From contig DAIOHD010000001.1 of NCBI GenBank assembly GCA_036744835.1, positions 208,967-272,966 of the forward strand: DNA of 64,000 nucleotides, written 5' to 3'. A program made the translations under genes and the position numbers. Source of the stretch: Candidatus Magasanikiibacteriota bacterium (GTDB lineage: Bacteria; Patescibacteriota; Patescibacteriia; Magasanikbacterales; GWA2-37-8). The notes beneath the pieces were generated by a model. The model searched no databases and was not told the origin of the DNA. It saw only the letters and a program-made list of their open reading frames with translations. Shown here piece after piece: positions 1,979-63,270 of the stretch; the first letter of the stretch is position 1; each line of letters opens with the position of its first letter.

Positions 1979-2112
1979 AAAAACTCAAATGTCAAATCTC
2001 AATATTTAAAAGATTTAAGAAATTAAAAAAATTTAAGAGATTATGGTTTGTGTTAAAAAATCTTTTAAATCTTTTCAATCTTTAAATTATTTGGTTTTGA
2101 CTTTTGACATTG
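1979..2112. repeat. MITE-like intergenic element, copy A (CTCAAA-heptamer arms)
   Basis: 5' arm AAAACTCAAATGTCAAATCTC and 3' arm GGTTTTGACTTTTGACATTG are mutually reverse-complementary; same arms recur at 4 other loci. Confidence 0.4.
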
Positions 2113-2274
2113 TTATTTTTATGGTACAATACCTATGTTCCACCAACGGGGTAAAACTGTTCTACAAAAAAACATGTGAAGGTTTGTCGATATTTGCTTG
2201 ACCTGCGGGTTAAGCGTGAGACTTACCACCTATACATTTAGGGGCATGTTTTAACCCCTTGGTTGAACGCAAAA

Positions 2275-2306
2275 AAATCCCTACCAATGGTAGAGATTTT
2301 TTTATT
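2275..2306 (-). terminator. Intrinsic terminator downstream of rpmB (minus strand)
   Basis: CTACCA-A-TGGTAG hairpin flanked by an A-run (plus side) and T-run (minus side). Confidence 0.4.
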
Positions 2307-2307
2307 T

Positions 2308-2478
2308 TTAACCTTTTTTGATAGTGCGGCGACAAGTTGTACAAGCTTTTACAGTCATACCCATCATTTTTACATTTTGTAAATTTGGCTTTTGTTGACG
2401 GGGAACTTTGTTTTTAGCGTGACTAACATGATTGGCACGTGCGGAGGTTTTTCCACATATAGTGCAAGTTCGGCTCAT
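2308..2478 (-). CDS. rpmB: Ribosomal protein L28 (56 aa; below ORF-track size cut-off)
   Basis: Manual minus-strand translation MSRTCTICGKTSARANHVSHAKNKVPRQQKPNLQNVKMMGMTVKACTTCRRTIKKG matches the L28 consensus (MSRVC.V.GK....GN.VSHA.N.TKRRF.PNLQ). Confidence 0.75.
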   Translation of the reverse strand: MSRTCTICGKTSARANHVSHAKNKVPRQQKPNLQNVKMMGMTVKACTTCRRTIKKG

Positions 2479-2525
2479 ATTTTTGTTGCTAATTTAAGTT
2501 AAATGCTTTATAATTAAGTAAAAAT

Positions 2526-2554
2526 ATTATAACTAAATTATTAAATTTTGTCAA
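2526..2554 (-). promoter_or_regulatory. Consensus sigma-70 promoter for rpmB (minus strand TTGACA-N17-TATAAT)
   Basis: Reverse complement of 2526-2554 reads TTGACA aaatttaataatttagt TATAAT, about 45 nt upstream of the rpmB ATG. Confidence 0.5.
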
Positions 2555-2559
2555 TATTT

Positions 2560-3165
2560 ATGCAGTGGATGTCAATTCTGTTTTATTTCTTAATTATCGT
2601 TCCTTCGGCCATAATTCATGAATATGCTCATGGTTTTATGGCGGATAAACTCGGGGATCCGACCGCTCGTTATGCCGGACGTTTGACATTGAATCCCAAG
2701 GCCCATATTGATCCTTGGGGTACAGTTTTAATGCCGATCATTCTATCTGTTTTGAGTGCCGGTAAATTTTTGTTTGCTTATGCTAAACCGGTACCATATA
2801 ACCCATATAATCTCAAAAATCAAAAATGGGGAGGGGCTTTGGTGGCAATAGCCGGTCCGATGTCCAATTTTTTATTGGCTTTCTCATTCGCTCTGCTAAT
2901 CAGATTTTTGCCCTATAGTGATTTAACCCAGTTTTTGTATATTATCGTTTACGCAAATGTTTTACTTTTAGTCTTTAATTTGATACCCATTCCTCCTCTG
3001 GATGGTTCTAAAATACTTTATGCATTGTTACCGGCGGGAAGTGAAAAAATAATTTATTTTTTGGAAAAAAATAGTTTTATAATTTTGTTAGTTTTTGTTT
3101 TTTTCTTGTTTAATTTGATTTTCCCGATTATTCAGTTTTTGGTTAGATTTTTAGTTGGATTCTAA
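2560..3165 (+). CDS. M50 (site-2 protease) family zinc metalloprotease, membrane
   Basis: HEYAHGFMADKLGD (HExxH within a TM helix), LNPKAHIDPWGT and a multi-TM profile; start may be the TTG at 2548. Confidence 0.6.
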   Translation: MQWMSILFYFLIIVPSAIIHEYAHGFMADKLGDPTARYAGRLTLNPKAHIDPWGTVLMPIILSVLSAGKFLFAYAKPVPYNPYNLKNQKWGGALVAIAGPMSNFLLAFSFALLIRFLPYSDLTQFLYIIVYANVLLLVFNLIPIPPLDGSKILYALLPAGSEKIIYFLEKNSFIILLVFVFFLFNLIFPIIQFLVRFLVGF

Positions 3166-3168
3166 TAG

Positions 3169-3278
3169 GTTGTAAATGTTGTAATTGTCATAGATGTTGT
3201 AGGTGTTGTAATAAAACAATTAGAACAAGCATATTAGCGCGATAAATCATTTTAAACAAGCGCATTAGCGCGATAAAA
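3169..3278 (+). promoter_or_regulatory. Two sets of direct repeats upstream of the DUF360 gene
   Basis: GTTGTA(A/G) at 3169, 3178, 3196 and 3205 (9-bp spacing within pairs); a 23-bp direct repeat AACAAGCrcATTAGCGCGATAAA at 3224-3246 and 3255-3278. Confidence 0.3.
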
Positions 3279-3289
3279 CAATTAATTAT

Positions 3290-3628
3290 ATGAAAACTCT
3301 TCTCAGTTGGCTCTTAAACTCCGCCGCTTTAATAGCTCTAACTTATTATCTGCCTGGCATTAGCGTTTCTGGTTTTGCACGAGCGCTATTAGTAGTTTTG
3401 GTTTTGGGTTTGGTTAATACCCTTATTCGTCCAGTTGTTTTGTTTTTTACACTACCGATTAATATTTTGACTTTAGGATTATTCACATTTATTATCAACG
3501 CTTTGATGTTTTGGTTGGTTGGCTGGTTAGTAGAGGGTTTTTATGTAGCTGGTTTTGTACCGGCATTTTGGGGTGCGCTGTGTATGATGATTATAGGGTG
3601 GATAATAAATGCCATATTAAATAAATAG
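3290..3628 (+). CDS. DUF360/holin-superfamily-IV-like small membrane protein
   Basis: 112-aa ORF with 4 TM helices and a YLPGISVSGF...LVNTLIRP pattern. Confidence 0.4.
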   Translation: MKTLLSWLLNSAALIALTYYLPGISVSGFARALLVVLVLGLVNTLIRPVVLFFTLPINILTLGLFTFIINALMFWLVGWLVEGFYVAGFVPAFWGALCMMIIGWIINAILNK

Positions 3629-3799
3629 TCCAGTAATACAACTTTTAGTTGTTTATGAAAAATTATGCTAGCAATCGAGCACAAAAAGGCAAAACTGCCT
3701 ATCGTACTCCAAGTTTATTTAAAGCCAATAAGGCTATAGTTTACGCAGATTTAAAATCAAGAGTAAATTCTAAAAAAACTAACACCTTTCTTAATTATT

Positions 3800-4735
3800 A
3801 TGAAAAAAAATAAAGGAAAAGTTAGCTTATATTATAGTCATGATATTGACGAATATACCAAAGCTTTAAAAGAAAAAACTAAAAAATTAAAAAAAGTTAA
3901 ATTTTCTTCCTTTAAATTGAAATATAAAAACGGACAATTTTCTTTTTTACGCTTGGCTTCTTCCGATATAAAAACCAAAGATAAGGTTTTATTTATTGCT
4001 GCCGGTATCCACGGTGAGGAAACCGCCGGTCCGTTGACGATTTTAAACAATCTTAAAGAAATTTTTTCTTATGCGCGAAAAAATAAAGTTAAATTGATTA
4101 TTTACCCTCTTTGCAACCCTAGCGGTTTTTCACAGATGACCAGATATAATATTGACGGTGATGAGGGAGGGGAAACCGGTAATAATGATTTTTTACGCTA
4201 CGAAATGGCTGATGGAACTTTTAAAGATGATATTAAAAAAAGCAATAATTATAAGGCCTGGTATTGGTCATCAGAGATTACCAAAAAATTACCATTGGAA
4301 ACAAAAATAATGCATAAGCTTCTCAAAAAAGAACCACTTACTCAGGTTAGGGCTTTGCTTGATTTACATCAAGATTATATCAGTAACGTTTCTTTACCTT
4401 TTTCCTATCACTATTCTTTCGGAAAACTTGGGGTTTATAAAGATATTATAAAAAATATCAAAAAAATAGTACCGCTTTATAAAAATAGGATGATAGATGC
4501 GGGTTTTTGTGAAGTAGATAAAGAAGGAGATCGTAGTCATTGTTTGGAAGAGGCAATGTTGTCAGATAAAAACGGTTTTGTTGTGCGTCACGATGGAACT
4601 TTGCCGGATCTTTTTTATCGTCTAGGAACACCATATTGTATCACTGTGGAAACTACCGGCGCTACACCGTTGCAAGAAGCGATGGCGGTAAATATGGCCT
4701 GGATAAAAGGATTGATAGATTTAATTAAAAAATAA
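3800..4735 (+). CDS. M14 / succinylglutamate desuccinylase-aspartoacylase-like zinc hydrolase (putative)
   Basis: IAAGIHGEETAGP (HxxE zinc motif), DLHQD and PLCNPSGF. Confidence 0.35.
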   Translation: MKKNKGKVSLYYSHDIDEYTKALKEKTKKLKKVKFSSFKLKYKNGQFSFLRLASSDIKTKDKVLFIAAGIHGEETAGPLTILNNLKEIFSYARKNKVKLIIYPLCNPSGFSQMTRYNIDGDEGGETGNNDFLRYEMADGTFKDDIKKSNNYKAWYWSSEITKKLPLETKIMHKLLKKEPLTQVRALLDLHQDYISNVSLPFSYHYSFGKLGVYKDIIKNIKKIVPLYKNRMIDAGFCEVDKEGDRSHCLEEAMLSDKNGFVVRHDGTLPDLFYRLGTPYCITVETTGATPLQEAMAVNMAWIKGLIDLIKK

Positions 4736-4745
4736 TTTATATATT

Positions 4746-5426
4746 ATGAAAAAAACAATTGTAATTTCTTTGGGCGGTTCTATTATTATTCCCAAAGAAG
4801 GTTTTGACACAATGTTTTTAAAAGGGTTTAAAAAACTTATTTTGAGTTTGATAAAAAAATATAGATTTATCATAGTTTGTGGCGGGGGACAGACGGCCCG
4901 TAGTTATCAACAAGCCGCCCGCACGCTTGGAGATTTGAGTTCTGAGGATTTGGATTGGATAGGTATTCATTCTACCAGATTAAACGGACATTTAATGAGA
5001 ACTATTTTTCGTCGACATGCCCATAAAGCGGTAGTAAAATATCCGCTTAAAAAACAGGATTGGAAAACCCCGATAATGTTAGCTGCTGGTTGGAAGCCCG
5101 GTTTTTCCACAGATTATGATGCAGTGTTGTTAGCGAAAAAATACGGCGCAAATACAGTAATAAATTTATCCAACATTGACTATGTTTACGACAAAGACCC
5201 TCGTGTTAATAAGGATGCTAAAAAACTGGAAAATATAGATTGGGAACAATTTCAAAAAATTGTTGGCACTAAATGGATTCCCGGAGCAAATTTACCTTTT
5301 GATCCGGTAGCTAGTGTTTTGGCAAGAAAAAACAAAATGAAAGTACTATTTGTCAAAGGAACGCAGCTAATAGAAGTCAAAAAGGCGATAGAAGGTAAAA
5401 AAATCAAAGGTACGGTAATCTCATAA
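4746..5426 (+). CDS. pyrH: Amino-acid-kinase family protein, archaeal-type UMP kinase-like
   Basis: 226 aa; IVISLGGSII...FIIVCGGGQTARSY resembles archaeal PyrH more than the bacterial form. Isopentenyl-phosphate kinase is not excluded. Confidence 0.45.
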   Translation: MKKTIVISLGGSIIIPKEGFDTMFLKGFKKLILSLIKKYRFIIVCGGGQTARSYQQAARTLGDLSSEDLDWIGIHSTRLNGHLMRTIFRRHAHKAVVKYPLKKQDWKTPIMLAAGWKPGFSTDYDAVLLAKKYGANTVINLSNIDYVYDKDPRVNKDAKKLENIDWEQFQKIVGTKWIPGANLPFDPVASVLARKNKMKVLFVKGTQLIEVKKAIEGKKIKGTVIS

Positions 5427-5433
5427 ACACAAA

Positions 5434-5463
5434 ATCCCTCGCTTTAAAGCGGGGGATTTTTTT
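5434..5463 (+). terminator. Intrinsic terminator
   Basis: ATCCCTCGC-TTTAAA-GCGGGGGAT hairpin followed by a T-run. Confidence 0.45.
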
Positions 5464-5524
5464 AATGTTAAGTATTTAATATAAGATATAAAATTCTTTA
5501 TTTTAAATTAGTTAAAAAACAGGA

Positions 5525-5635
5525 AGCCTCGTCACGCTTAGCGTGACTACAACCCCAGACTTTTCTTCGCGGGCCACGCTTAGTGTGGCTTTACCGGCGC
5601 TTAGCTAAAACGGGGCCACGCTAAGCGTCGGGTTG
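5525..5635. repeat. Cluster of TNA-loop hairpins (CGC-TNA-GCG cores), REP-like
   Basis: GTCACGC-TTA-GCGTGAC, GCCACGC-TTA-GTGTGGC, GCGC-TTA-GC and CCACGC-TAA-GCGT units; related clusters at 33534-33550 and 63186-63270. Confidence 0.45.
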
Positions 5636-5698
5636 ACAAAATCTTTAAAATATGCTAATTTAAGCTATTAAGTTCTTTTACAAGCGAGGTAAAAAACC

Positions 5699-6574
5699 AT
5701 GGACAGGTGTAGACAAGATCTCCACCTGCATATTGGTGGAGATAATTTAGAAAACATTGTAAAAAATGCAAAAAAGTCCGGGATCAGAACACTTTCATTA
5801 CTTGACAAGGAGAGTGTGGAAAGGACTTTGGAGATTGAAGCGGTTTGTAAAAAGTACAGTTTGAATTGTTTGCGTGGCGTGGAGGTTAATGCTAAATATG
5901 CAAACAAGGTCTATCATTTTCTGATATATAAGTTTAGAAATATTCAGAAAGTGCGGGGATTCTTTAAGAGAGAAGCCAAAGCCAAGTATAAACGAGTAAT
6001 TAAGGTGATTGCTCTTTTACAAAAACTAGGCTGGCAAATTGATCTGGAAAAATTGGGCAATATACCCAAGACTAATCTCGGGCGGCGTTTGGTGGTGGAA
6101 AATATTCGAAATCACGCAGACAATCAGGAAAGGCTATTAAAAGAAGGGATTTTTAGTAATGATGATTTTTATCGCCGTTATTTGGAACTTGGTAAACCGG
6201 CTTACTATGATCGTAAGGTTAGTAGTGTTTATCAGTTGATCAAAACTATGCGTGCGGCTGGAGCCTTGATAGTCTGGGCTCATCCATGGCGAACCATCAG
6301 AGAAAATTTTGGAGAAGAAAATTTCCGAGATAATTTTTCGGGAGTTTTCAATTATTTTAGGAAGATAGGGATTGATGGAGTTGAGGTTTACTATCCTGAA
6401 GTTCCTAAAGAGACGGTAATTTTTATGTATTGTCTTTGCCGGAAAAATCAACTGTTGGTTACCATAGGTTCTGATAGTGTGGGGTCTGAATTGATTCCAC
6501 TCCCTATAATAATCAAAGGGAAGGAACCTAATGATATTTCTAATGCCAACTCGCTTTACAGAGGGGTGCTCTGA
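5699..6574 (+). CDS. PHP-domain metal-dependent phosphoesterase
   Basis: DLHLHIGGDN, GVEVN, WAHPWR and GSDS motifs in PHP order; locally higher GC than neighbours. Confidence 0.5.
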   Translation: MDRCRQDLHLHIGGDNLENIVKNAKKSGIRTLSLLDKESVERTLEIEAVCKKYSLNCLRGVEVNAKYANKVYHFLIYKFRNIQKVRGFFKREAKAKYKRVIKVIALLQKLGWQIDLEKLGNIPKTNLGRRLVVENIRNHADNQERLLKEGIFSNDDFYRRYLELGKPAYYDRKVSSVYQLIKTMRAAGALIVWAHPWRTIRENFGEENFRDNFSGVFNYFRKIGIDGVEVYYPEVPKETVIFMYCLCRKNQLLVTIGSDSVGSELIPLPIIIKGKEPNDISNANSLYRGVL

Positions 6575-16953: not shown

Positions 16954-18329
16954 TGTCGATTCGTAATTTCGTATTATTTCGTAAGTTCGTACGTAATTTA
17001 TTTATGTCTCGTGATTTAATCTCACAACTCAAAAATCTCAAACATAAAGATATCACTCCCAGTGATGCGTGGTTGAAGCAAAACCGCGGTATTTTGTTAT
17101 CTCAAATCAAAAACAATGCCGTGTCCAATGCTCATACTTCTTATGAAAATTTTTGGATTGCAATGTCCGTGTTTTTTGGTGAAAAAATGATTTTAAATGT
17201 AGTAAAACCCCTATCTATTCTTTTGATAGTCACTATGGTCGGAACTTCTGGTTGGATAGCTACTGTGGATGCTGCTTACGAAAGTTTACCCGGAGACATA
17301 TTATATGGAGCCAAAAGAGTGGTAGAAAAAACCCAGATTACTACCGCTTCGGTTTTGGGTAATAAAGATACTGAAACTAAACTTCATTCTGAATTTGCCA
17401 AACGTCGCGCCAATGAAATAAAAAAAGTTTCTGTTAGTGATGATCCGAAAAAAACCGAAAGAGTTGTAGAAACAGTAAAAGATTTAAAAAATGAGATGAA
17501 TAATTTGAGTGATAAATTGGAAGGAAGCAAACAAGTTAGTTTAGCGGCCAACACTCTCAAAGAAGTAAAGAAAAATACGGATCAGATTAAAAGCGTTTTG
17601 ACCGAAGTAAAAGATGACCTATCTCTTGTAGCGACTTCAACAGTAGATAAAAATACAGTAGAAGTTATTTCGCAAGCCAAAGACATGGTAAAAGATGTAG
17701 CGGTTAAAACCGTTGAAGCGGTGGTAAGTAAACATCTAGAAGGTGACGTTAGTGTTAGTACGGATGAAATCAAAAAAATGTTAAACGAAACTGTTACTGA
17801 AACTATCAATGAAACCTTGGTTAAAACCGGTAATTTGGTGGGGGTAAATAATATTGTTGAAGCGGTTAAAACAGAAATTAAAGTTCTTGATAGTGCCAGT
17901 TCTACTGCTTTTTCTACAACCAGCTCAGCTGATTTGGCGCAACAAATAGAAAATATAGCCAGCACTACCAAGCAAGCTGCGTTACAAACTCAGGAAATTA
18001 TCAAAGATTCCGATAAAAAGACCGATGAATTACAATCAATGTTAAATAGCGGAGATTTGGCCGGAGTTTTAAATATGGTAAAGGAAGTAAACGAAGTAAA
18101 TAAAACCGTGGAGAAAATTATTGATACGGCGGTTGGCAGTGTTCAATTGGCTTTGCCTCCGGTAGTCAGTGTGGTAAAAGAAAAAACCGAAGCCGGAATC
18201 AGTGTTACTTCAACAGCGGATGTAAAAGTGATAGTGACGAGCACTCCGACGGCTTCAACGACTATCATAGTAACAACTACCCCGGTTAATACGTCTACTA
18301 CGGTAGAGACAAGCACACTTAAAAAATAA
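16953..18329 (+). CDS. Putative anti-sigma factor: short cytoplasmic N-terminus, one TM, long extracytoplasmic coiled-coil / S-T-rich domain
   Basis: Start overlaps the sigma-gene stop (translational coupling); topology typical of ECF anti-sigma partners. Confidence 0.45.
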   Translation: MSIRNFVLFRKFVRNLFMSRDLISQLKNLKHKDITPSDAWLKQNRGILLSQIKNNAVSNAHTSYENFWIAMSVFFGEKMILNVVKPLSILLIVTMVGTSGWIATVDAAYESLPGDILYGAKRVVEKTQITTASVLGNKDTETKLHSEFAKRRANEIKKVSVSDDPKKTERVVETVKDLKNEMNNLSDKLEGSKQVSLAANTLKEVKKNTDQIKSVLTEVKDDLSLVATSTVDKNTVEVISQAKDMVKDVAVKTVEAVVSKHLEGDVSVSTDEIKKMLNETVTETINETLVKTGNLVGVNNIVEAVKTEIKVLDSASSTAFSTTSSADLAQQIENIASTTKQAALQTQEIIKDSDKKTDELQSMLNSGDLAGVLNMVKEVNEVNKTVEKIIDTAVGSVQLALPPVVSVVKEKTEAGISVTSTADVKVIVTSTPTASTTIIVTTTPVNTSTTVETSTLKK

Positions 18330-18703
18330 TTTTCAATTTTTAATTTTACAATTTTTAATGAATTTTTAAGATTTAATGCTTAAATTATTTTTGAAAATTT
18401 ATTCATTGTAAATTAATTAAAAATTTTAAATTTTAAATTAAAAATTTCATTTAAATCTTAATTCACCCGACTTACTCCTTCCAGTTTGTAGAAAAGATAA
18501 ATCTTATCTCCAAGCTGGAGGGGGCTACTAAGTCAATCCACTGTTGCTTACAAGGTCGAGAGTCCATATGGACTCGCACAGTATTGTGCGTTTGGCGGGC
18601 TAAGGGCATATGTCTTAGGTCATCAAACAAAAAGTTCCGAATTTTTCTGACCCTGCTTGTCGGGCGCGCAGAAAACCGGAAACTATAAATTATTAATTAA
18701 ATT

Positions 18704-22450: not shown

Positions 22451-22765
22451 TGATGTTTTTTTACTTTCTCAAAAATCAAAAATAGTGTAGAATATACATA
22501 ATCAATCTTTAAATCTTGCAATCTTGTAATCTTTAAATTTTTTAATATTATGAATTTAAAAGAAAAATTTTACATAACGTTGAGTTTTGTGCTCGTCGTT
22601 TTTTTTATTTTTGCTGACCTTTATCTTTACCGTTATTATTATCAAGTAAAAACATCTCCGGTTTTACAAATGGATATTTCAGCGGTGTATGAGAAGTATG
22701 TGGAGGGGATAAAATAAAATCGTATATCGTATAACGTGTATCGTATTTCACATACTATATACGAT

Positions 22766-23342
22766 ATACTAAATACTATATACTAAATATTATTTAAATA
22801 TGTCTAAAACTACTAAACTCATTTTACTTATCAACAGCGGGATCATCCTAGTTCTTTTGGTCATCGGCGGATATCTTTGGTTCGCTCAATCCCAGCTCTT
22901 TGTCAAAGCAGGTTTAGCGGAAAGCAAATTCCCTTATAAACTTTATACCGCTTTTGAACTCCAAGGTATGTATTCTCAAGAACCTCTAGAGAATGTGAAA
23001 ACAACCCAAACACCGGAGCAAACCCATGCGTTATTTATTTCCGCTTTGCGAAAAGGGGATATAGACGGAGCAGTGGAGTGTTGTGTATTGAAAGTAGATA
23101 AAGAAAAGATGAGAGAAAAATTAAACAGAATTAAAGACGCGGATAATTTTATGTTGATGGTGAAAGATATTTCCACCGCTGATTTTTCTTATAATAAAGA
23201 TTTAGAAAAAGAATCAAGAATAAATATTGAATTTTATGGTATTGAAAAGGATAAAAAAATTGGAGCGCTGATGACTTTCCAAAAAAATCTTGATGGTATT
23301 TGGATGATAGAATCTTTTTGATAAGTATATAGTATTTAGTAT
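22766..23342. repeat. Perfect 19-bp inverted repeats flanking the 22800-23321 ORF
   Basis: ATACTAAATACTATATACT at 22766-22784 and AGTATATAGTATTTAGTAT at 23324-23342 are exact reverse complements. Confidence 0.6.
22800..23321 (+). CDS. Hypothetical membrane-anchored protein (173 aa)
   Basis: N-terminal TM/signal anchor (LILLINSGIILVLLVIGGYLWF); no recognizable family. Confidence 0.35.
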   Translation: MSKTTKLILLINSGIILVLLVIGGYLWFAQSQLFVKAGLAESKFPYKLYTAFELQGMYSQEPLENVKTTQTPEQTHALFISALRKGDIDGAVECCVLKVDKEKMREKLNRIKDADNFMLMVKDISTADFSYNKDLEKESRINIEFYGIEKDKKIGALMTFQKNLDGIWMIESF

Positions 23343-23365
23343 TAAGTATTAAGTATTTTAATATT

Positions 23366-26300
23366 ATGCACAGGAGGGGAAAGTTTTTATTTTTCGCAGG
23401 GCTTATGTTTGCTCTGTTTTTTAATCTACAAAATGTATTTGCTTATGACCACAGTATTGCTCATCCGGGAATAGCTGATTTAGCGGTAAAACTTTATAAC
23501 AGTCAAAATGAAATACAAATTACGGCCCAACAAGTGGAATATATTTTACAAGGATCCAATAATGAAGATTCTCCTGTCCGCTGGTTTAACCATTTTTATG
23601 ATCCGATTTATAATATTGGGTTTAGTGATTTCGTATTTGGAGAAAAACTGGGTATTTTCCCGACCGCACCAGTTTGGCTACAAAGTCCTTATGATCAAAT
23701 ACAGTATTCAGTCGGCGATAGGAGTTGGCAAAGAGCGATAGATGATTACGCTCGTGGAGATGAAGAAAAAGCATTCTTGGGATTAGGACACGCTATCCAT
23801 CTGATATCAGACATGTCCGTACCCGCGCACACTCGCAACAGTGCTCATCCGGGAGATTCATACGAAAGTTTTGTTAAAAGTAATTGGAGTAGTATTGCCC
23901 CAAATCTCAATTATGAATTTAGAGAAATAAATAGCTTACAACAAGCTTTTACAGATTTAGCAAATTATTCCAATAATAATTTTTATTCTGACAGAACTAT
24001 TAAAAACAATAAATATAGCATTGTAAATATAATTGAAAATAATTTAATACAAAATAACAACGGCTTATTTTATAGATATTATTTTTCTAAAATAAACAAT
24101 AAACAATATAAAATTTTTGTAAATAAAAATCCTTTAAAATGGAACGATGAAGAAATTTATGAGCTTGATGATTATTTAGTACTAACCGACTATTCTCAAA
24201 CCCTCATCCCCCAAGCTGTTTCCTACAGCTCTGGTTTGATAAAATTATTTTTACAAGAAGCAGAAGCCAAAAAATCTCAATTACAATATGAAAAAATGTC
24301 TTGGTGGCAAAAAATTAATAATGTATTATTTAACGATGATTTGCCGATAGTTCGTCAAACTGTAGAAGGGTATGTAATGGAAAAAACTCTGGCCCCAGCT
24401 ATTGAATTTGGTGGAGATGTTTTGGATAAAGCCAAAGAAATCAAAGAAACAGTTGAAAAAATTGCGCAAAAAAATCAAGAACCAGAAGTTTATGAAAAAA
24501 TTATACCTGAAGCCAAAGCGGAAGAAGAAAAAACAATAATTATATCATCTACAACATTTACAACACCCACAACACTTATAACAACTACAACATCTTATTA
24601 TTCCAGTGGGGGAGGGTCATCTTATGTTCCACCAACTGTGGAACCTACTACCACACCTGAAATCAACCTTGATTTAGAAACCCCATCCCCGGAACTTTTT
24701 TTGGAATTATTTCAAACCACTACTAGTAATTTTATCACCTTGAATTTTAGCTCCAGCGAAACCTCGTCGCTACCTGTGAGTTTTGAGGGGAAACATAGCA
24801 CTTCTACTTTTTGGAATTCGCTTTTTTCTTGGACTACGTCTACGTTATATATTTTTGAAACAAATAAGAGTGGAGAATATAATTTTCGAGTGCGTGCGAT
24901 TGACGGTGTTTATAATACTTCTACTTGGACAGAAATGTCTGTCACTGTGCCACAAAGAGAGTGCATTTATAGCTATTTAACCGGGGAACAAGAAGATGAT
25001 GAGGTTGTTCTGACTCCGGATAGCAGTCCTTATCTTTTAGATTATTATTATGTATCACCCGGAAAGAAATTGATAATAGAACCTGGGACAGTAATAAAAA
25101 GTTTATCTTATGAGGATGGCGAAAATATTTTTGCTTACGCCAATTTGGATGTAGCCGGAGAATTGGAGATATTGGGCACTTCGGAAAATAAAGTGATTTT
25201 TACTTCTGTTTATGACAATAGTTTTGAAAATGAATGTTTAAATACGTTATCTTTGGCCACTTCAAGCGAACAGGTAATGGGCGGAATTTTGATAGGAGTT
25301 TTTGATACTACTGTTGATTTGAAAAATTTTGAGATGAGACAGTTTGATAGACCGCAACCCCATGTTCAGTTAGCTTCTTTTGGTGGTTTTTATAATGATT
25401 ATATTTATCCTACCAATGAATGTATTATTGTTGAAAATTCGGCTATAAATATTACCGGTGCTGTTTTTAAAGGATGCGGGGGAGAAGGAGCATTACAAAT
25501 AAAAAATTCGCAAGTTACGATAAAAAATAGCCAAATAATATCCGATTTAAACGCTTATGATAATGGTGTGGTAGTAGAAGGGGGCGATTTATTTTTGGAT
25601 ACAGTAAAAATAAGCGGTTATCGTGAATATCCTTTAAAAATTTTAGCGGAAGCAAATTTTCAGTTTATTGATTTATCTTTGGAAAATAATAGAGTTAATG
25701 CTATTTTAAACCCTGAGTTAAAAGGTGATTTAAATTTAAAAAAAGATGAAAATTTTTGGGTTTTAAATAGAGATATTTTGAATAGTTTGTCTTCGTTTAC
25801 AGTTGATCCTGGGGCAAGTTTTTATTATGAAGGAATGGATGGTATATCTTCTAACAAAAATCTATCTCTCATCGGTACGCCAGAAGATAGGATTAAAATA
25901 TATTTACCAAATATTTATGAAAGCGCCATGTCATTTAACGGTACAACAAATATTTTTAAATACGTGGATTTTGTCGGTTTGGAGCCCTATCTAAATACCG
26001 GATTGAAAGATTCATACGGAGTAGAAAATTCTTGGGGCTTAGTTTTGTCGGATTCTTACAGAAGAGAAATTTTAAATTTTAGCAAAAGACGTAGTCAGGG
26101 TTTGATAATCAGAAATGGCAATCTTGTTTTAGAAAATGTCAGATTTTTTAATAGTTTTATTCCGTGGTCTGTCGCTTTGAATTTATATAATTCTACTAGT
26201 TCTTTAAAAGAAGTTTCTTTTATTACGATTAAGCCTTATGGAGAAATTTTTTATTTGGAAGAAGCGGAAAATTTGGGTATTAACGGAGACGGCGGAATTG

Positions 26301-26518: not shown

Positions 26519-26526
26519 TTTTTATC

Positions 26527-26690
26527 CCCCTCTCTTATTCAAGAGAGGGGCGAGGGGAGAGTCTAAATCCCTCCCTCTGCCCGAGAGGGAGGTTAGGAGG
26601 GAGCGGGAGAGACTCCACCCTAACCCTCCTCTTAAACAAGAGGAGGGAACTTCCCCTCTCTTATTTAAGAGAGGGGTGAGGGGAGAGTCT
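26527..26690. repeat. Array of five GC-rich polypyrimidine/polypurine hairpins (two identical 38-bp units)
   Basis: CCCCTCTCTT-ATTC-AAGAGAGGGG at 26527-26550 and CCCCTCTCTT-ATTT-AAGAGAGGGG at 26653-26676, plus CCTCCCTC/GAGGGAGG, GGAG-AGA-CTCC and CCCTCCTCTT-AAAC-AAGAGGAGGG between them. ORF 26496-26699 is an artefact of this repeat. Confidence 0.55.
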
Positions 26691-26699
26691 TTAACGTAA

Positions 26700-26733
26700 C
26701 AAAAAACTTTCGCTTACCGGCGAAAGTTTTTTG
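26700..26733. terminator. Bidirectional intrinsic terminator between the convergent 1050-aa gene and glyA
   Basis: A-run, ACTTTCGC-TTACCG-GCGAAAGT, T-run. Confidence 0.65.
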
Positions 26734-28018: not shown

Positions 28019-28035
28019 AAAATAAATTTTATTTC

Positions 28036-28115
28036 AAAACTCAAATGTCAAAACTGTTAGAAGTTTTTAGGTTTTGAGATGTGGATTTGAGATTTGCGTT
28101 TTGACTTTTGAGTTT
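28036..28115. repeat. MITE-like element, copy C (arms only, compact)
   Basis: CAAAACTCAAATGTCAAAACTG ... GGTTTTGAGATGTGGATTTGAGATTTGCGTTTTGACTTTTGAGTTTT between the nudix stop and the glyA start. Confidence 0.4.
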
Positions 28116-28507
28116 TATTGTTTTATATCATTAATTATTTGATATACATTATCTGCGCAATCTTCTGGCAAGTTGTTAATGTCGTGCCAATCCCACTCTG
28201 CAATTTCTATGCCTGGTTTTATTTCTCCAATTCTTTTTGCCAAATAATGGATTAAGATAAAAACCTCATTTTCTTTTTTAACCAAAATTGGTCGCAAAGG
28301 TTTTATTATTTCTACTTCAATACCCATTTCTTCTTTTACTTCTCGTTTGCAGGCATCTTCCAAAGTTTTTTCATAATCTTCAACTTTACCGCCTGGAAAC
28401 ATCCACGGTGAAATACCGTTTTCTTTTTGTTCCCGGTTTAGTAAAACTTTATTGTTTTCAATAATTACCGGACCGGAAGCGATAAAAGAAATGTTGTAAG
28501 AATCCAT
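28115..28507 (-). CDS. NUDIX hydrolase
   Basis: Nudix box GGKVEDYEKTLEDACKREVKEEMGIEV. Confidence 0.7.
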   Translation of the reverse strand: MDSYNISFIASGPVIIENNKVLLNREQKENGISPWMFPGGKVEDYEKTLEDACKREVKEEMGIEVEIIKPLRPILVKKENEVFILIHYLAKRIGEIKPGIEIAEWDWHDINNLPEDCADNVYQIINDIKQ

Positions 28508-30148: not shown

Positions 30149-30215
30149 TTCTGAAAATTTAAAATTGGAAATTAATTAAAAATTGTAAAATTAAAAATTG
30201 AAAATTATTAAGATT

Positions 30216-33341: not shown

Positions 33342-33533
33342 ATTTTATAAAGTTTTAGGTCTCAAGCTTTAAATTAGCTTGAAAACCAGAAATTAACATT
33401 ACTCCGACCTGTTTTTTGAGTAACGAAGTATTATAGCATATTTTGACGCTTTTGTCAACCCCGCTGAGCTGGGTAAAAAGTATCTATTTTAAAGGGGTTT
33501 TTTTATTTTTTAAATTAATTTTTGCTAGCATTA

Positions 33534-33550
33534 GCCACGCTAAGCGTGGC
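33534..33550. repeat. TNA-loop hairpin (GCCACGC-TAA-GCGTGGC), member of the REP-like family
   Basis: Perfect 7-bp stem and 3-nt loop; same unit as at 5572-5631 and 63230-63247. Confidence 0.45.
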
Positions 33551-33657
33551 AAGCCCCCAAAGTGGCTAAGATTGGCCAAAAAATAATTTTAAAATTCTCA
33601 TTTTTACCTTTGCTTTAAATCAAACTATGTAGTATAATGGTCATATAATCAAAATTT

Positions 33658-34536: not shown

Positions 34537-34595
34537 AAATTGTGAATTGATAATTCATTAAAAATTGAAAATTAAAAATTAAAAATTTTCAAATT

Positions 34596-35507
34596 ATGTC
34601 TTGGTTTCTCATCGCATTAATTGGTTATTTTGTTTTGGCGGGAGTTTCGGTCTCTGATAAATTCATTTTATCCAAAAAACTGGCGACACCGGCGGTTTTT
34701 GTTTTTTATTCCACTGTTCCTCTTTTGGTTTTATTTTTATCTTTATTTTTTGGAGTGGAGATTTTTTTGGGCTTGGGTTTATTTTGGGCGGCGATTTCTG
34801 GACTGGCTTTACTTTTTGGCTTTTGGACAATGTATAAAGGTTTTTTCAAAAGTGAAGTTTCTCATGCTGGACCACTTTTGGGAGCTGTAATGCCAATTTT
34901 TGTTTTGGTTATTAGTTACTTTTTTTTGGGAGAAGTGTTAAGCGACAAACAACTGGCAGCCTGTTTTTTGTTGATTTGTGGATCGTTTTTGATTTCTTTT
35001 GAAAAAAGTGTTCAATATAATGGTTGGCACCAGGGTTTTGCTTGGATAATTTTGGCTGGATTTTCTTTTTCTGTTTCTCATGTAGCAGCTAAATATTTAT
35101 ACGATATTTATGGTTTTACCGCCGGACTGGTATGGAGCAGAGGAATGTCTGGAATATTTGGTTTAGCTTTGATTTTTATACCGTCGGTTCGCACGGAAAT
35201 AAAATCTTGGTTTAAAAATAAAGAAAAAGATTTATTACTGCAAAATACAAATAAACTGCCTTTAATAATTTTTAACAAAACTTTTGGTTTAGTTGGTGTA
35301 TTTTTGGTGCAATTGGCTGTGGCGCTCGGTAGTGTAACTTTAGTCAATGCTATGGCTGGTGCGCAATTTGGATTATTGATAATTTTAGTAGCTCTATTGA
35401 GTCGGTTTTATCCGAAAATTTTTAAAGAAGAATATAGTAAACTTGAAGTATTGCAGGAAATAATCGCAGTGGTTGTGATTGGAGTAGGGTTGGGGATGCT
35501 AATTTAA
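34596..35507 (+). CDS. DMT/EamA-like permease (10 TM)
   Basis: Two-fold repeated 5-TM hydrophobic pattern. Confidence 0.4.
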   Translation: MSWFLIALIGYFVLAGVSVSDKFILSKKLATPAVFVFYSTVPLLVLFLSLFFGVEIFLGLGLFWAAISGLALLFGFWTMYKGFFKSEVSHAGPLLGAVMPIFVLVISYFFLGEVLSDKQLAACFLLICGSFLISFEKSVQYNGWHQGFAWIILAGFSFSVSHVAAKYLYDIYGFTAGLVWSRGMSGIFGLALIFIPSVRTEIKSWFKNKEKDLLLQNTNKLPLIIFNKTFGLVGVFLVQLAVALGSVTLVNAMAGAQFGLLIILVALLSRFYPKIFKEEYSKLEVLQEIIAVVVIGVGLGMLI

Positions 35508-35630
35508 AAAACTCAAAACTCAAATCTCAAAACTCAAAACTATTGTATCGCTTCGCGATGCTTATAATAAAATCGTCCCGACTTGTCGGGACACCAAAGT
35601 TTTGACTTTTGACCTTTGACTTTTGAATTT
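35507..35630. repeat. MITE-like element, copy D (CTCAAA arms plus a conserved two-hairpin core)
   Basis: AAAACTCAAAACTCAAATCTCAAAACTCAAAAC ... core TATCGCTTCGCGAT and GTCCCGA-CTTG-TCGGGAC ... AAAGTTTTGACTTTTGACCTTTGACTTTTGAA. Confidence 0.45.
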
Positions 35631-35638
35631 AAATAACT

Positions 35639-36684: not shown

Positions 36685-37050
36685 CTAAAGTTCTAATAAA
36701 TTGATGAATCCTTTGCGGAGGTAGCCGATACAGTAGGCCCCCTCCTTTTTTTTGAAGATGTTTCTTGAAATAGGAGTGAGACTTTTTGATTTGATGTACA
36801 ACTTGGAGATTTCGGTTAAGACATAAAAAGAATTTTCTGGCAGAATGATGTCTTTGACAGAAATTCTCCTTTTTTTGTTCGCGTACAGCTTGGAGACAAC
36901 CACGCTATCTTCAAGAACGTGGATGACCAATACCAACAAAGCGACACCGTTTTTTCTTTCCTGATTGTCAAACACGGTCCAGATTTGTCCCATTTTGAGT
37001 TTGGGGCATCTGGGCTGAACCCGAAGTTTCAGGGGAAGATTGTTTTTCAT
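36685..37050 (-). CDS. Hypothetical basic protein (121 aa); weak PemK/MazF-like N-terminus
   Basis: GQIWTVFDNQERKNGVALLVLV faintly resembles MazF; no partner antitoxin ORF; locally GC-rich. May be spurious. Confidence 0.2.
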   Translation of the reverse strand: MKNNLPLKLRVQPRCPKLKMGQIWTVFDNQERKNGVALLVLVIHVLEDSVVVSKLYANKKRRISVKDIILPENSFYVLTEISKLYIKSKSLTPISRNIFKKKEGAYCIGYLRKGFINLLEL

Positions 37051-44461: not shown

Positions 44462-44471
44462 TTATTTAAGT

Positions 44472-44588
44472 TAAAAGTCAAATGTCAAAAGTCAAAACCA
44501 TAGTATCGCTTCGCGATATCTAATAAATTGTCCCGATACAAAATTGGGACACAAAAGTTTTGAGATTTGCGTTTTGAGTTTTGAAATT
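44472..44588. repeat. MITE-like element, copy E (same conserved core as copy D)
   Basis: TAAAAGTCAAATGTCAAAAGTCAAAACC ... core TATCGCTTCGCGATA and GTCCCGATACAAAATTGGGAC ... AAAGTTTTGAGATTTGCGTTTTGAGTTTTGAAATT. Confidence 0.45.
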
Positions 44589-44592
44589 CGCT

Positions 44593-45717
44593 ATGATTAT
44601 AGGGATTGAAGCTAATCATGCCAATAAAGAGCAGAGGACAGGGGTAGAAAACTATTGTTGGCATATTATAAATAATCTTAAAAAACAAATCCCCTCGGAC
44701 GTGAGGGTGATTTTATATACACAAAAACCTCTTTTGCCTGAATTGGCACAAGGGTTACCTTTGAATTGGGAAATTAAAATTTTAACTTGGCCTTTGGGTA
44801 AGTTATGGAGTCAAATCAGATTATCTTTTGAATTGTTTAAAAATAAACCAGATATTTTTTTTGCGCCTGGTCAACTAATACCGTTTTTTTGTCCTCAAAA
44901 AACCGTAGTAACGGTGCATGACAGCGCTTTTATGATTTTTCCAACCAGTTATCGTTTTTGGGGTAGGCAATATCTAAAATGGATGAATAAAAGAATAGTT
45001 AAAAAAGCTATGTTTATTTTAACTCCTTCGGAGTTTAGTAAAAAAGAGTTTAAAAAATTATATAATTTTGCCGAAGATAAAATCATAGTAACTCCACTTG
45101 GTTATGAAAAAGAAGTTTATAACACAACAAACCAAGAAATTTCAGAGAGAATCTTAGAAAATTTAAATATTAGAAAGCCATTTATTTTTTATGTCGGTCG
45201 TTTGGAATATAAAAAAAATATAGTTTCAATTTTGGAATCTTTTGAACAAATTAAAAAAGAAAATAAGTTTTTTGGTCAGTTGGTTTTAGGTGGTAAGCCG
45301 GGTTATGGTTATGAAAAAATAAAAAAAATAATCGAACAAAGTAATTTTAAAGAGGATATAGTTTTGCCTGGATGGTTAAGCAACAAGCAGATTGTCGTTT
45401 GTTTTCAGAAAGCTGAATTTTTTGTGTTTCCTTCTTTATATGAAGGGTTCGGCTTGCCGCTTCTTGAAGCAATGGCCTGTGGTTGTCCGATTGTGGCTGC
45501 CAAAGGCCATAGTTTAGAGGAAGTTGGAGGTGATGCAGTTGAATATTTTGATTTTAAAAATAAATCGGAATTAACTGAAAAACTAAACTTTTTACTTAGT
45601 GACAAAAATAGAATAATTTGGCTTAAACAAAGAGGTTTACAAAGAGTGCAACAATATTCTTGGGAAAAAACAGCTATTTATACAAAAGATTTGTTTTTAA
45701 GGTTGCAAAATAGTTAA
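44593..45717 (+). CDS. Glycosyltransferase family 4 (GT-B)
   Basis: EGFGLPLLEAMACGCPIVA motif; the upstream TTG at 44581 lies inside the repeat arm, so ATG 44593 is preferred. Confidence 0.65.
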   Translation: MIIGIEANHANKEQRTGVENYCWHIINNLKKQIPSDVRVILYTQKPLLPELAQGLPLNWEIKILTWPLGKLWSQIRLSFELFKNKPDIFFAPGQLIPFFCPQKTVVTVHDSAFMIFPTSYRFWGRQYLKWMNKRIVKKAMFILTPSEFSKKEFKKLYNFAEDKIIVTPLGYEKEVYNTTNQEISERILENLNIRKPFIFYVGRLEYKKNIVSILESFEQIKKENKFFGQLVLGGKPGYGYEKIKKIIEQSNFKEDIVLPGWLSNKQIVVCFQKAEFFVFPSLYEGFGLPLLEAMACGCPIVAAKGHSLEEVGGDAVEYFDFKNKSELTEKLNFLLSDKNRIIWLKQRGLQRVQQYSWEKTAIYTKDLFLRLQNS

Positions 45718-55609: not shown

Positions 55610-55698
55610 AGTTTATAAAGTTTATTTTAGTAGGATAAGAAATACAAAATTATAAGTAATTACGAATCGAGATTGAAAATTTATAATTTAAAATTAGC

Positions 55699-58533: not shown

Positions 58534-59808
58534 ATGGATTTTAATACAAGCAATATAAATATTTCCGGACCGACACCGACCAAAAAAAGAGCGGGAAAAT
58601 ATTTTGGTTTATATCTATCTTTAATTTTATTTATTGTTTCTTTTGGCTTAGGGTTTTTTTCCGGACAATATTATTTTATCCATAAAAATATTATTGATGA
58701 AAACGGAGAAGTGGAACAAACAAAAGTTTTAAAATTAAATAGAATGTTAAATCATTCCGATGAGATTGAATTTGAACAATTTTGGGAAGTTTGGGATAAA
58801 ATAAAAGAAAAATATGTTAAAAAAGATGTTAAAGATGAAGATCTTTTTTATGGTGCGGTACAGGGGTTGGTTTATGCATTAGGAGACCCCTATTCTTTAT
58901 ATTTTCCACCAAAAGCTGCAGACGAATTTTCTAAAGATTTATCAGGAGAACTTGAAGGTATCGGTGCTGAAATAGGTATCAAAAATCAATTATTAACAGT
59001 AATCGCTCCGTTGGCAAACACGCCGGCAGAAAGAGCGGGATTAAGGCCTGGAGATGTTATTTTGCAAATCGGCGAAGAAATTACTTTGGGTATGGATGTT
59101 AATACTGCTGTATCAAAAATTAGAGGTAAGGCTGGTACAGAAGTTATTTTATCAGTTAATAGAAATGAATGGCTTGAACCTAAAGAAATAAAAATTGTTC
59201 GTGCTAAAATAAGTGTTCCGTCAGTTACTTTCAAGATGCAGAATAATGAAGTAGGCTATTTTAGGGTTATGCAGTTTAACGAAGATACGCAAAAACAATT
59301 TGATAAAGGAATCAAAGAACTTCAAAATCGCAGTGGTAAAAAAATAATTTTGGATTTACGAAATAATCCGGGTGGTTATTTGGACCAGGCTATTCGTATG
59401 GCTAGCGAATGGATAGAAAAAGGAGTAGTTGTCAGTGAAAAAGGAAATGATGGCAATAACAAAGAACATGAGACTACCGGTAGTGCGCGTTTACAAAATA
59501 TACAAACAGTAGTTTTGATCAACGGTGGTTCAGCCTCTGCGTCAGAGATCGTTGCCGGGGCTTTGCAAGACAATAAAAAAGCTACCATTATTGGAACAAA
59601 AACTTTTGGTAAGGGTTCAGTACAAGATTTTGAAATGTTTCCTGATGGTTCAGCACTTAAGTTGACAGTTGCTGAATGGTTTACGCCAAACGGAAGAAAT
59701 ATCAATAAAGAAGGGATAGTTCCTGATATTGAAGTGATAGAGGAATGGGATAAAGAGAAAATCGGCGAGGATGTGATGATTGATAAAGCACTCGAGTTGT
59801 TAAAATAG
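58534..59808 (+). CDS. ctpA: S41 carboxyl-terminal processing protease (PDZ plus peptidase), membrane-anchored
   Basis: PDZ (GLRPGDVILQIGEE), S41 blocks (LDLRNNPGGYL; NGGSASASEIVAGALQDN; TFGKGSVQ). Confidence 0.75.
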   Translation: MDFNTSNINISGPTPTKKRAGKYFGLYLSLILFIVSFGLGFFSGQYYFIHKNIIDENGEVEQTKVLKLNRMLNHSDEIEFEQFWEVWDKIKEKYVKKDVKDEDLFYGAVQGLVYALGDPYSLYFPPKAADEFSKDLSGELEGIGAEIGIKNQLLTVIAPLANTPAERAGLRPGDVILQIGEEITLGMDVNTAVSKIRGKAGTEVILSVNRNEWLEPKEIKIVRAKISVPSVTFKMQNNEVGYFRVMQFNEDTQKQFDKGIKELQNRSGKKIILDLRNNPGGYLDQAIRMASEWIEKGVVVSEKGNDGNNKEHETTGSARLQNIQTVVLINGGSASASEIVAGALQDNKKATIIGTKTFGKGSVQDFEMFPDGSALKLTVAEWFTPNGRNINKEGIVPDIEVIEEWDKEKIGEDVMIDKALELLK

Positions 59809-60811: not shown

Positions 60812-61077
60812 AAAATTGGAAAAAAGTTATAATAATTTTTAATTTAAGATTTTCAATTTTTAATAAATTTTTAATGATTAAATTTTCAAATTATCTTATT
60901 ATTGTCTTATATTATTGAAAATTTTAAATTCAATAAAAATTAATAATTAAAAATTAGGTAAGTTTGATTGAAAATACGCTTTTTAGTTAAAAACCCTTTA
61001 TTTTGTAAGATACTTTTCAATAACTTTCTTTTGTAGTACTATATTATAGGAAATTAATAAAATAAGCAAGAAATAAT

Positions 61078-63197: not shown

Positions 63198-63270
63198 GCG
63201 TAACTTTACCGACGCTTAGCTAAAAACGGGGCCACACTAAGTGTGGCAATTACCGCGCTCAGCGCGGGGT
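63186..63270. repeat. Cluster of TNA-loop hairpins (REP-like family), overlapping the pyrG stop
   Basis: GTTACGC-TGA-GCGTAAC, GCGC-TTA-GC, GCCACAC-TAA-GTGTGGC, CCGCGC-TCA-GCGCGG; block TTTACCGaCGCTTAGCTAAAAACGGGGCCAC is shared with 5589-5625. Confidence 0.5.

Follow-up and report, generated by a model that had tools for sequence, protein, structure and literature searches.

We have analysed a 64,000-nucleotide stretch of DNA (the window) from a Magasanikbacteria-like member of the Patescibacteria, whose genome has a GC content of 34.6%. Five short elements, copies 1 to 5, lie in its spacers; they are 88–190 bp in size, contain no open reading frame (ORF) and at every locus take up nearly the whole spacer. 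The original prediction had described them as a five-copy family resembling MITEs (transposable elements of miniature size with inverted repeats), and all five are present where it had placed them. The neighbours of all copies are protein-coding or small-RNA genes, and none of the copies lies at the tip of a 23S or 16S rRNA helix.

At all five loci the left arm is built of [C/G]TCAAA[A/T] heptamers and the right arm of reverse-complement heptamers. A degenerate two-unit pattern, AASTCAAATSTCAAA, searched with up to two mismatches, has 24 matches in the window compared with 1.68 ± 1.29 in 100 shuffles, none of which reached 24; the architecture that had been claimed, a heptamer left arm and an inverted right arm, is thus borne out. 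Inside the five loci lie 22 of these matches, on the plus strand in left arms and on the minus strand in right arms, and the other two (at 4927 and 16433) are intragenic and at chance level. A full arm of about 55 nt comprises four heptamers, an irregular unit and two further heptamers. All ten window arms align in register, with two to seven units per arm and a GC content of 18–31%; conservation of the unit is confined to a 5–6-nt core. The right arm had also been taken for the reverse complement of the left, which holds for the heptamer type but not to the letter, as every heptamer of copy 4 contributes a C·C mismatch and every heptamer of copy 5 a G·G mismatch. A sequence-only arm model, R1, was built from an alignment of two window arms with both arms of five cassettes from elsewhere that carry genes of the protein family PF05635. 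It recovers nine of the ten arms in the window (E = 1e-15 to 6e-4) and no further copy.

Copy 1 (1979–2112; elements are given without strand) is immediately preceded by the terminator hairpin (1950–1978) of the NDK gene. Its left arm (1980–2003, AAACTCAAATGTCAAATCTCAA; R1 E = 5.6e-4) and its right arm (2093–2109, GGTTTTGACTTTTGACA; missed by R1) enclose nested inner arms of 9-mers (2004–2043 and 2058–2090), and the predicted fold has a minimum free energy (MFE) of −26.3 kcal/mol (z = −2.9). The right arm is the source of TTGAC −35-like hexamers for a promoter-like site downstream. Between copy 1 and the minus-strand rpmB gene lies an unannotated candidate small RNA (sRNA) of about 170 nt (2126–2305, plus strand), with a promoter-like TTGACT-17-TATGGT, or TGgTACAAT when read as an extended −10 element, and an intrinsic terminator at 2281–2293 followed by a T run; this candidate has no Rfam match, even at E ≤ 1. 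Copy 2 (14127–14316; z = −3.3) has convergent genes on either side and a bidirectional terminator hairpin (14098–14126) upstream. It consists of a full-length, 54-nt left arm (14127–14180), a structured payload of about 95 nt (14181–14276) and a short right arm (14277–14316) that reaches the minus-strand gene at its stop codon (14315), the two arms having R1 E-values of 1.4e-15 and 7e-5.

The other three copies fill spacers between co-directional genes. Copy 3 (28031–28118; z = −3.5 on the plus and −6.5 on the minus strand), the simplest, fills the NUDIX–SHMT spacer on the minus strand with a short left arm (28031–28055), a 5-nt loop and a full-length, 54-nt right arm (28061–28114; R1 E = 6.6e-13 and 2e-5). 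It ends on the NUDIX stop codon (28115), and the distance to the SHMT start is 17 nt. Copy 4 (35507–35634; MFE −41 kcal/mol, z = −9.8) fills the EamA–GH5 spacer, and the break of a public short-read contig falls inside it. Its left arm of four CTCAAA-type units (35507–35543) and right arm of four TTTTGAC-type units (35597–35634; R1 E = 6e-10 and 9e-9) enclose two payload hairpins, at 35545–35559 (GTATCGCTTCGCGAT) and 35575–35592 (GTCCCGACTTGTCGGGAC). Copy 5 (44462–44589; MFE −37 kcal/mol, z = −6.3) fills the spacer between MreB and a glycosyltransferase (GT4) gene, and has a left arm of four GTCAAA-type units (44462–44502), payload hairpins homologous to those of copy 4 (44503–44517 and 44529–44551) and a right arm of four TTTTGAG-type units (44554–44589; R1 E = 1.4e-8 and 1e-6). 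A few bases past its end the glycosyltransferase gene begins, at 44593 according to the public annotation. Three copies had been said to abut gene ends, and this is confirmed for copies 2, 3 and 5.

The copies resemble one another in more than their repeat units. Copies 4 and 5 are colinear, with 82% identity over about 140 nt that include both hairpins of the non-repetitive core. Copy 2 has a 54-nt left arm in which the order of units is heterogeneous and which shows 83% complementarity to copy 3's right arm; copy 2 therefore looks like a copy-3-type hairpin with an insert of about 95 nt at its tip. These similarities show that the copies share descent and have been dispersed by copying within the genome, rather than merely sharing a motif, and they support the predicted discrete, dispersed family of small non-coding elements with inverted terminal arms. 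A metagenome scan with a 15-mer of the copy 4/5 hairpin yielded listed matches that are mostly chance; among them, a GTATCGCTTCGCGAT-type hairpin lies beside a heptamer arm at two of 120 loci (L150 and L153). The same initial 15-mer also begins an unrelated motif, GTATCGCTTCGCGATGATTGATATTGGGCTC...CCAAAGGGACATTGTCCCTTTGG, which follows terminator-like hairpins in several contigs (L143, L208, L224 and L255).

Arms of the same design are found elsewhere. Outside the window, the model R1 gives no match in 18 kb more of source-genome DNA or in about 105 kb from five syntenic relatives, 113 matches in 703 kb of loci selected by the arm pattern, and two weak matches in 569 kb of unrelated contigs, each adjoining the GTATCGCTTCGCGAT hairpin known from copies 4 and 5. 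Judged by these searches, the expansion of the family is lineage-specific, the syntenic relatives lacking it. A scan with the arm pattern, using one genome per species, gave at least 120 loci, which were selected by pattern and are not a census, so that the relative commonness of this heptamer cannot be derived from them. They span very different phyla, including genomes of 61–71% GC, and among the matches listed, the [C/G]TCAAA[A/T]-type arrays are arranged convergently in 21 cases, divergently in five and directly in 11.

At several of them (L071, L074, L085, L081 and L019) a small ORF lies between the arms and scores above the Pfam threshold for PF05635. This is the family of 23S rRNA intervening-sequence proteins, Avd-like four-helix bundles that first came to notice in insertions within some 23S rRNA genes. 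Such armed cassettes occur in other Patescibacteria and in metagenome-assembled genomes (MAGs) labelled Gammaproteobacteria, Prevotellaceae and Thermodesulfovibrionales, labels that may be wrong for low-GC contigs. Loci picked by protein similarity alone (L259, L260 and L262–271) likewise all carry NTCAAAN units in the 5′ arm and NTTTGAN units in the 3′ arm; L262–271 are ten strain-level copies of one Roizmanbacteria locus. L260, from a MAG labelled Thermodesulfovibrionales, has a fatty-acid-synthesis gene cluster whose acyl-carrier-protein, FabA-like and ketosynthase genes alternate with two PF05635 genes and a heptamer palindrome without a gene (2167–3925), placing gene-less and gene-bearing forms of one heptamer side by side. 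Toxin–antitoxin-type genes (nucleotidyltransferase/HepT-like and HicA) follow farther on in this cluster (5168–6173). The called N-termini of the L074-type subfamily often read like TQNSKLKTQN, which is a translated array. An exact translation of three NTCAAAN units, in a window of seven residues, stands at the N-terminus of 36 of the 120 best L074 homologues and nowhere else in these proteins, and it occurs in none of 120 control proteins. The two long arms of the window and both arms of the five cassettes align as one design of about 55 nt (54–57 nt), and this alignment indicates that the window arms are homologous to those of PF05635 cassettes.

The association extends to other heptamers. 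The source genome has, in the 82 kb read, one PF05635 gene of its own, encoding 124 amino acids (L258, 3055–3501), 5.2 kb upstream of the window start between ValRS and TyrRS, and this gene is flanked by the inverted heptamer arrays AGTATAT/CGTATAT and TATACGG/TATACGA. Another PF05635 gene lies between CAGACAT/GTCTGAT arms and is accompanied by a pair of such arms that enclose no gene, and one from an unrelated control set has TTTTAGA/AATCCAA arms. In all DNA examined, ten of 12 PF05635 genes lie between inverted heptamer arrays, several of quite different heptamers, as defined by values above the 95th percentile of 600 control ORFs both in arm complementarity and in the period-7 signal of the two flanks; half of these examples come from loci selected by heptamer pattern, which makes the sample a biased one. 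PF05635 is the only recurrent cargo of arm pairs in 82 kb of the source genome and about 700 kb of other loci. In the literature searched, the coverage of which is incomplete, we found no published link between PF05635 genes and heptamer repeats.

Repeats of period 7, of which the arms represent one variety, run through the spacers of this genome and through many phyla. Tandem Repeats Finder assigns period 7 to 33 of 91 arrays in the window, and 24 of the 33 are intergenic though spacers make up 10.4% of the DNA; the autocorrelation of spacer sequence peaks at lags 7 and 14, and both peaks persist when the five loci are left out. Other heptamer arrays in these spacers, often inverted pairs, include AAAATTN, AGTATNN, GTAAGCN and AATATCC among others. 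An intergenic excess of heptamer repeats in prokaryotes, with occasional convergent pairs, is on record (PMC4692102; PMC4679880). A second family in the window, AAAATTN/NAATTTT, is found at 18323–18452, 30152–30210, 34537–34588, 55672–55695 and 60830–60960. Its loci have long arms in common (57 nt at 88% and 53 nt at 89%), two of them are internally palindromic and two are situated where promoters diverge. At 22719–23366, between two giant ORFs, a 173-amino-acid membrane-anchored ORF without a Pfam match (22800–23321) has inverted heptamer arrays on both sides (left, ATCGTAT/ATACTAT; right, AGTATTT) and looks like a heptamer-armed cassette, though its product is not a PF05635 protein.

Seven syntenic relatives were obtained through MreB homologues. 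At orthologous spacers, relatives carry analogous elements that are built from other heptamers and unrelated in sequence. The MreB–GT4 spacer holds a GGACTTC/AGTCTAC heptamer hairpin in four of them (L129, L132, L133 and L134), AGTAAGN arrays in L126 and a single base in L123 (TAA-t-ATG). The EamA–GH5 spacer is 30 nt long in L123, holds a TCCTAAA/TTTAGAN palindrome in L126 and, in L134, an AATGACC/GGTCATT palindrome with nested cores. The AATGACC/GGTCATT unit is presumably the same as the cyanobacterial STRR2 repeat TTGGTCA, and the L134 element (1019–1279) has, nested within it, a hairpin of GC type as well as an extended inverted repeat (GTCATTCTGAGTGAAACGAAGAATCCC...). Filled and empty sites can therefore be compared, as had been proposed, and L123 offers an empty MreB–GT4 site; it does not distinguish insertion from deletion, because the relatives are only 72–78% identical to the window in DNA sequence, and the only closer assemblies are identical to it. 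Turnover is seen between strains L126 and L127, which are 98.9% identical over 18.2 kb and differ by a single indel (L126 11025 versus L127 9470–9491). This indel is a 20-nt perfect palindrome (GCCTGCCTGCCGGCAGGCAG), its arms made of tandem tetramers, at AAGC^TT inside the heptamer array of the MreB–GT4 spacer. Beyond GH5, the window has on its minus strand a 121-amino-acid ORF without a Pfam match (36685–37050), with a promoter-like region and a terminator of its own; it is absent from the matching spacer between GH5 and a 761-amino-acid gene in L123, L126 and L129.

The window has several further features. At 26519–26700 four small GC-rich hairpins (CCCCTCTCTTATTCAAGAGAGGGG and variants) lie in an AT-rich spacer that has a sub-threshold Rfam match to Scr5676 (43 bits, with a gathering score of 56). 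A GC-rich hairpin family (GCCACGCTTAGCGTGGC and variants) resembling repetitive extragenic palindromic (REP) sequences occurs in three spacers (5527–5640, 33530–33560 and 63198–63270), one of which is kept in L126. The stretches 12431–12517 and 12621–12706 form a direct repeat that is perfect (40 + 53 nt, with a spacing of 189–190); it includes the 3′ end of tRNA-Val (12688–12762, minus strand) and resembles the scar of a tRNA-integrated element. Finally, an Rfam match to Rickettsia sRNA47 (59356–59659, minus strand; 68.3, with a gathering score of 60) lies antisense within the coding region of an S41 peptidase, and it therefore more likely reflects conserved S41 coding sequence than a real sRNA.

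In the predicted MFE structure of each copy the arms pair (z-scores −2.9 to −9.8). Both strands fold with the arms paired and the core looped out, and further small palindromes are nested at the centres. Intrinsic terminators, with a GC-rich stem and a U tract directly behind it on the transcribed strand, were considered and rejected as an identity for the elements: by a consensus scan, copies 4 and 5 have terminator-like sites in the antisense direction only, and canonical terminators of their own precede copies 1 and 2. Searched with the five loci, Rfam yields nothing, be it at its gathering threshold or at E ≤ 1.

Among known systems, the elements come closest to the intervening sequences (IVSs) of 23S and 16S rRNA in Coxiella, Leptospira and Salmonella. 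IVSs have an inverted-repeat stem and optionally an S23p/PF05635 ORF in the loop, are excised by RNase III and have long been suspected of mobility (PMC4990558). In both systems the inverted repeats at the ends pair into a long stem (of 28 bp in Coxiella; 28 nt for a four-heptamer arm here), the distribution is sporadic, which suggests horizontal transfer, and IVSs are regarded as selfish and have no known mobility enzyme (PMC4990558). The loop of an IVS is either short or holds a PF05635 gene, and such a gene is present in armed relatives of the window copies (L071, L074, L085, L019, L259, L260 and L262). In contrast to IVSs, the elements described here lie in spacers of protein-coding genes and not in rRNA helices, and their arms are tandem heptamers with periodic mismatches whereas the IVS stem is near-perfect. 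The five window copies also lack an ORF, and RNase III excision, which is known for IVSs, would extend to them by analogy.

The arms are also reminiscent of heptameric simple sequence repeats (SSRs), such as the STRR sequences of cyanobacteria (short, repetitive and tandemly repeated), TAACTGA of Beggiatoaceae, Cyanobacteria and Bacteroidetes, and GGGAATC of Xanthomonas. Those repeats, too, are tandem 7-nt units that are almost exclusively intergenic, with several unit families per genome, some convergent inverted pairs and a phylogenetic spread that suggests horizontal transfer (PMC4679880; PMC4692102). They have, however, been reported as direct repeats without defined ends, and none of those reports concerns Patescibacteria; the arms described here have a conserved 55-nt design, are paired, enclose a payload and are linked to a gene family. 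In work by Vioque in 1997, STRR arrays are reported to extend the P12 helix in the RNase P RNA of cyanobacteria. Cyanobacterial small dispersed repeats (SDRs) are said, in work by Elhai and colleagues in 2008, to be tiny palindromes inserted in one another and in heptamer arrays. By this description, the 20-nt L127/L126 palindrome and the nested cores of copies 1, 2, 4 and 5 are SDR-like; SDR units, at 21–27 nt, differ in size from the armed elements of 80–190 nt.

How, then, are the five loci to be explained? They might be plain heptamer SSRs of the STRR kind, arisen by slippage in place within AT-rich spacers, their inversion being a by-product of A- and T-rich tracts at terminators, with neither mobility nor a link to a gene. 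The dominance of period 7 among spacer repeats and the lag-7 peak that survives removal of the five loci speak for this account, as do the many other heptamer units here and at the matching spacers of relatives, the prevalence of period 7 in unrelated arrays of many phyla, where it is also the commonest period, and the recorded over-representation of heptamer repeats in prokaryotes (PMC4692102; PMC4679880). The concerted C- versus G-containing arms of copies 4 and 5, together with the lack of covariation between arms, would fit independent slippage in each arm, and the excess of convergent (A-rich, hairpin, T-rich) over divergent pairs among the matches listed is as bidirectional terminators predict. 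Slippage cannot, however, create the non-repetitive payload that copies 4 and 5 have in common, or the order of variant units over 54–57 nt that is common to copies 2 and 3 and to cassettes of other phyla. It also leaves unexplained the place of PF05635 genes between such arrays and the occurrence of AT-rich arrays of this unit in genomes of 61–71% GC, and ten strain-level copies show no variation in copy number; we regard it as rather unlikely. Less probable still are host cis-regulatory structures under selection, which might act as extended terminators, insulators, stabilisers of mRNA 3′ ends or intercistronic processing sites. The strong predicted stems, their location right after stop codons and before start codons, and arms unchanged in ten strains agree with such a role. 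So does the different heptamer hairpin kept 3′ of mreB in four diverged relatives, and the inner hairpins of copies 4 and 5, as antisense-only terminators, would stop antisense transcription and leave the operon intact. Yet the element is dispensable, since L123 has a 1-nt spacer at the same place, and from one relative to the next the sequences found at a given spacer are unrelated; neither covariation nor a sense-strand advantage is seen, no Rfam family matches and the flanking genes have no functional theme.

The predicted affinity to MITEs would, in its classical form, make the copies internally deleted insertion sequences moved in trans by an arm-binding transposase encoded elsewhere in the genome. 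MITEs are defined as small, AT-rich, dispersed elements with terminal inverted repeats and stable stem-loops (PMC10969869), and the copies share with MITEs, and with REP sequences and REP doublets forming hairpins (REPINs), that they are short, non-coding, palindromic and dispersed in spacers, with stable RNA stem-loops (PMC10969869; PMC3116915). With the limit for MITEs set at about 500 bp, size, inverted ends, copy number and absence of coding capacity bear out the term "MITE-like"; the lack of a consistent target-site duplication and of a transposase in the window, and heptamer arms that are not specific to one family, do not. The best flanking direct repeats of copies 1 to 5 are 6, 4, 7, 8 and 5 bp long and all differ in sequence. 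In the null the median is 4 bp, and 7 bp or more is reached in 5% of trials, so that only copies 3 (TTTTATT, 7 bp) and 4 (AATTTAAA, 8 bp) exceed 95% of the null; these two are unequal in length, such repeats are absent at the other three copies, and the number of units at the arm ends varies. Pfam detects no transposase domain among the window ORFs, and no transposase was found in 82 kb of the source genome or next to the arm pairs of other loci, which total about 700 kb. A search for a full-length transposase-encoding relative had been suggested, and the gene-bearing relatives that were found encode the PF05635 four-helix bundle instead. Classical MITEs are accordingly quite improbable. The copies are also unlike REP elements and REPINs, which are GC-rich palindromes of 20–40 nt that end in a conserved tetranucleotide, in having AT-rich (18–31% GC), internally repetitive arms without a GTAG or CGTC tag, and no Y1-transposase domain is encoded in the window and no partner REP-associated tyrosine transposase (RAYT) was found. 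We give least credence to arrays of binding sites for a reader of 7-nt single-stranded units, either a cold-shock/S1-type OB-fold protein or the PF05635 protein, with a role in translation or RNA chaperoning. Each cold-shock protein molecule binds one heptamer, and such binding has been proposed for the TAACTGA repeats (PMC4679880), CTCAAA arrays in direct orientation stand directly upstream of start codons in a Prevotella MAG (L078), and conservation of the unit is limited to its core. The many heptamer units in one genome speak against a single sequence-specific reader, and the inverted architecture is left unexplained.

On balance we lean towards a different reading, in which the five loci are small, selfish palindromes of one family, devoid of an ORF, akin to IVSs and situated in spacers between protein-coding genes. 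They are read as ORF-less relatives of PF05635 cassettes because arms of the same design flank PF05635 genes elsewhere. By analogy, the window copies would stand to these cassettes as ORF-less to ORF-bearing intervening sequences, or as MITEs to insertion sequences.

A number of results weigh against this reading. No target-site duplication of consistent length or sequence was found at the five copies and no mobility enzyme was identified; to our knowledge, PF05635 has no known transposition activity. In 82 kb of the source genome there is no gene-bearing copy with CTCAAA arms, and the taxonomic labels and the biased sample noted above qualify the link to PF05635. The ten strain-level cassette copies have a constant number of heptamers and differ by only one single-nucleotide polymorphism, so slippage is not fast. 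Left–right covariation at variable arm positions in 67 arm pairs is 0.607, compared with a permuted null of 0.598, and there is no evidence for upkeep of exact arm complementarity beyond unit composition. The transcribed strand has no folding advantage over the other strand, and the copies are inconsistent in this respect. Since neither extra covariation nor such an advantage is found, selection on an RNA stem is not demonstrated. The periodic C·C and G·G mismatches might, moreover, block RNase III cleavage.

If the five loci are IVS-like selfish elements, they would have spread by copy-and-paste into those few spacers in which a compact genome permits insertion, favouring the neighbourhood of stop codons or existing hairpins. 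The arms would then drift through replication slippage inside each array, which may account for the all-C and all-G arms of copies 4 and 5. In a polycistronic RNA the stem would bring the upstream stop codon near the downstream start codon with the insert looped out, and it is probably an RNase III substrate, by analogy with the intervening sequences of 23S rRNA. Because of such looping out or cleavage, the host would tolerate the insertion, and the message upstream might even gain stability from it. Some copies may have been co-opted, the TTGAC-rich arm of copy 1 having perhaps given −35-like boxes to the adjoining small-RNA promoter.

A wider proposal is more speculative, and we hold it to be doubtful. 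Inverted heptamer arrays might be the termini of pan-bacterial selfish cassettes whose sole gene is PF05635. The IVSs would then be those members that reside in rRNA, gene-less derivatives would account for much of the intergenic heptamer excess, STRR sequences included, and the PF05635 protein would recognise or propagate the arms. Two old puzzles may thus share an answer, namely the intergenic excess of 7-base repeats and the purpose of rRNA intervening sequences with their small ORF. On a practical level, such elements break short-read assemblies and cause spurious N-terminal extensions in gene calls. Should heptamer palindromes form a single system with the PF05635 cassettes, the role of this uncharacterised and very common protein family, which includes the accessory protein Avd of diversity-generating retroelements, would become testable, as would the origin of STRR-type repeats and the tolerance of insertions within operons in minimal genomes such as those of the Patescibacteria.

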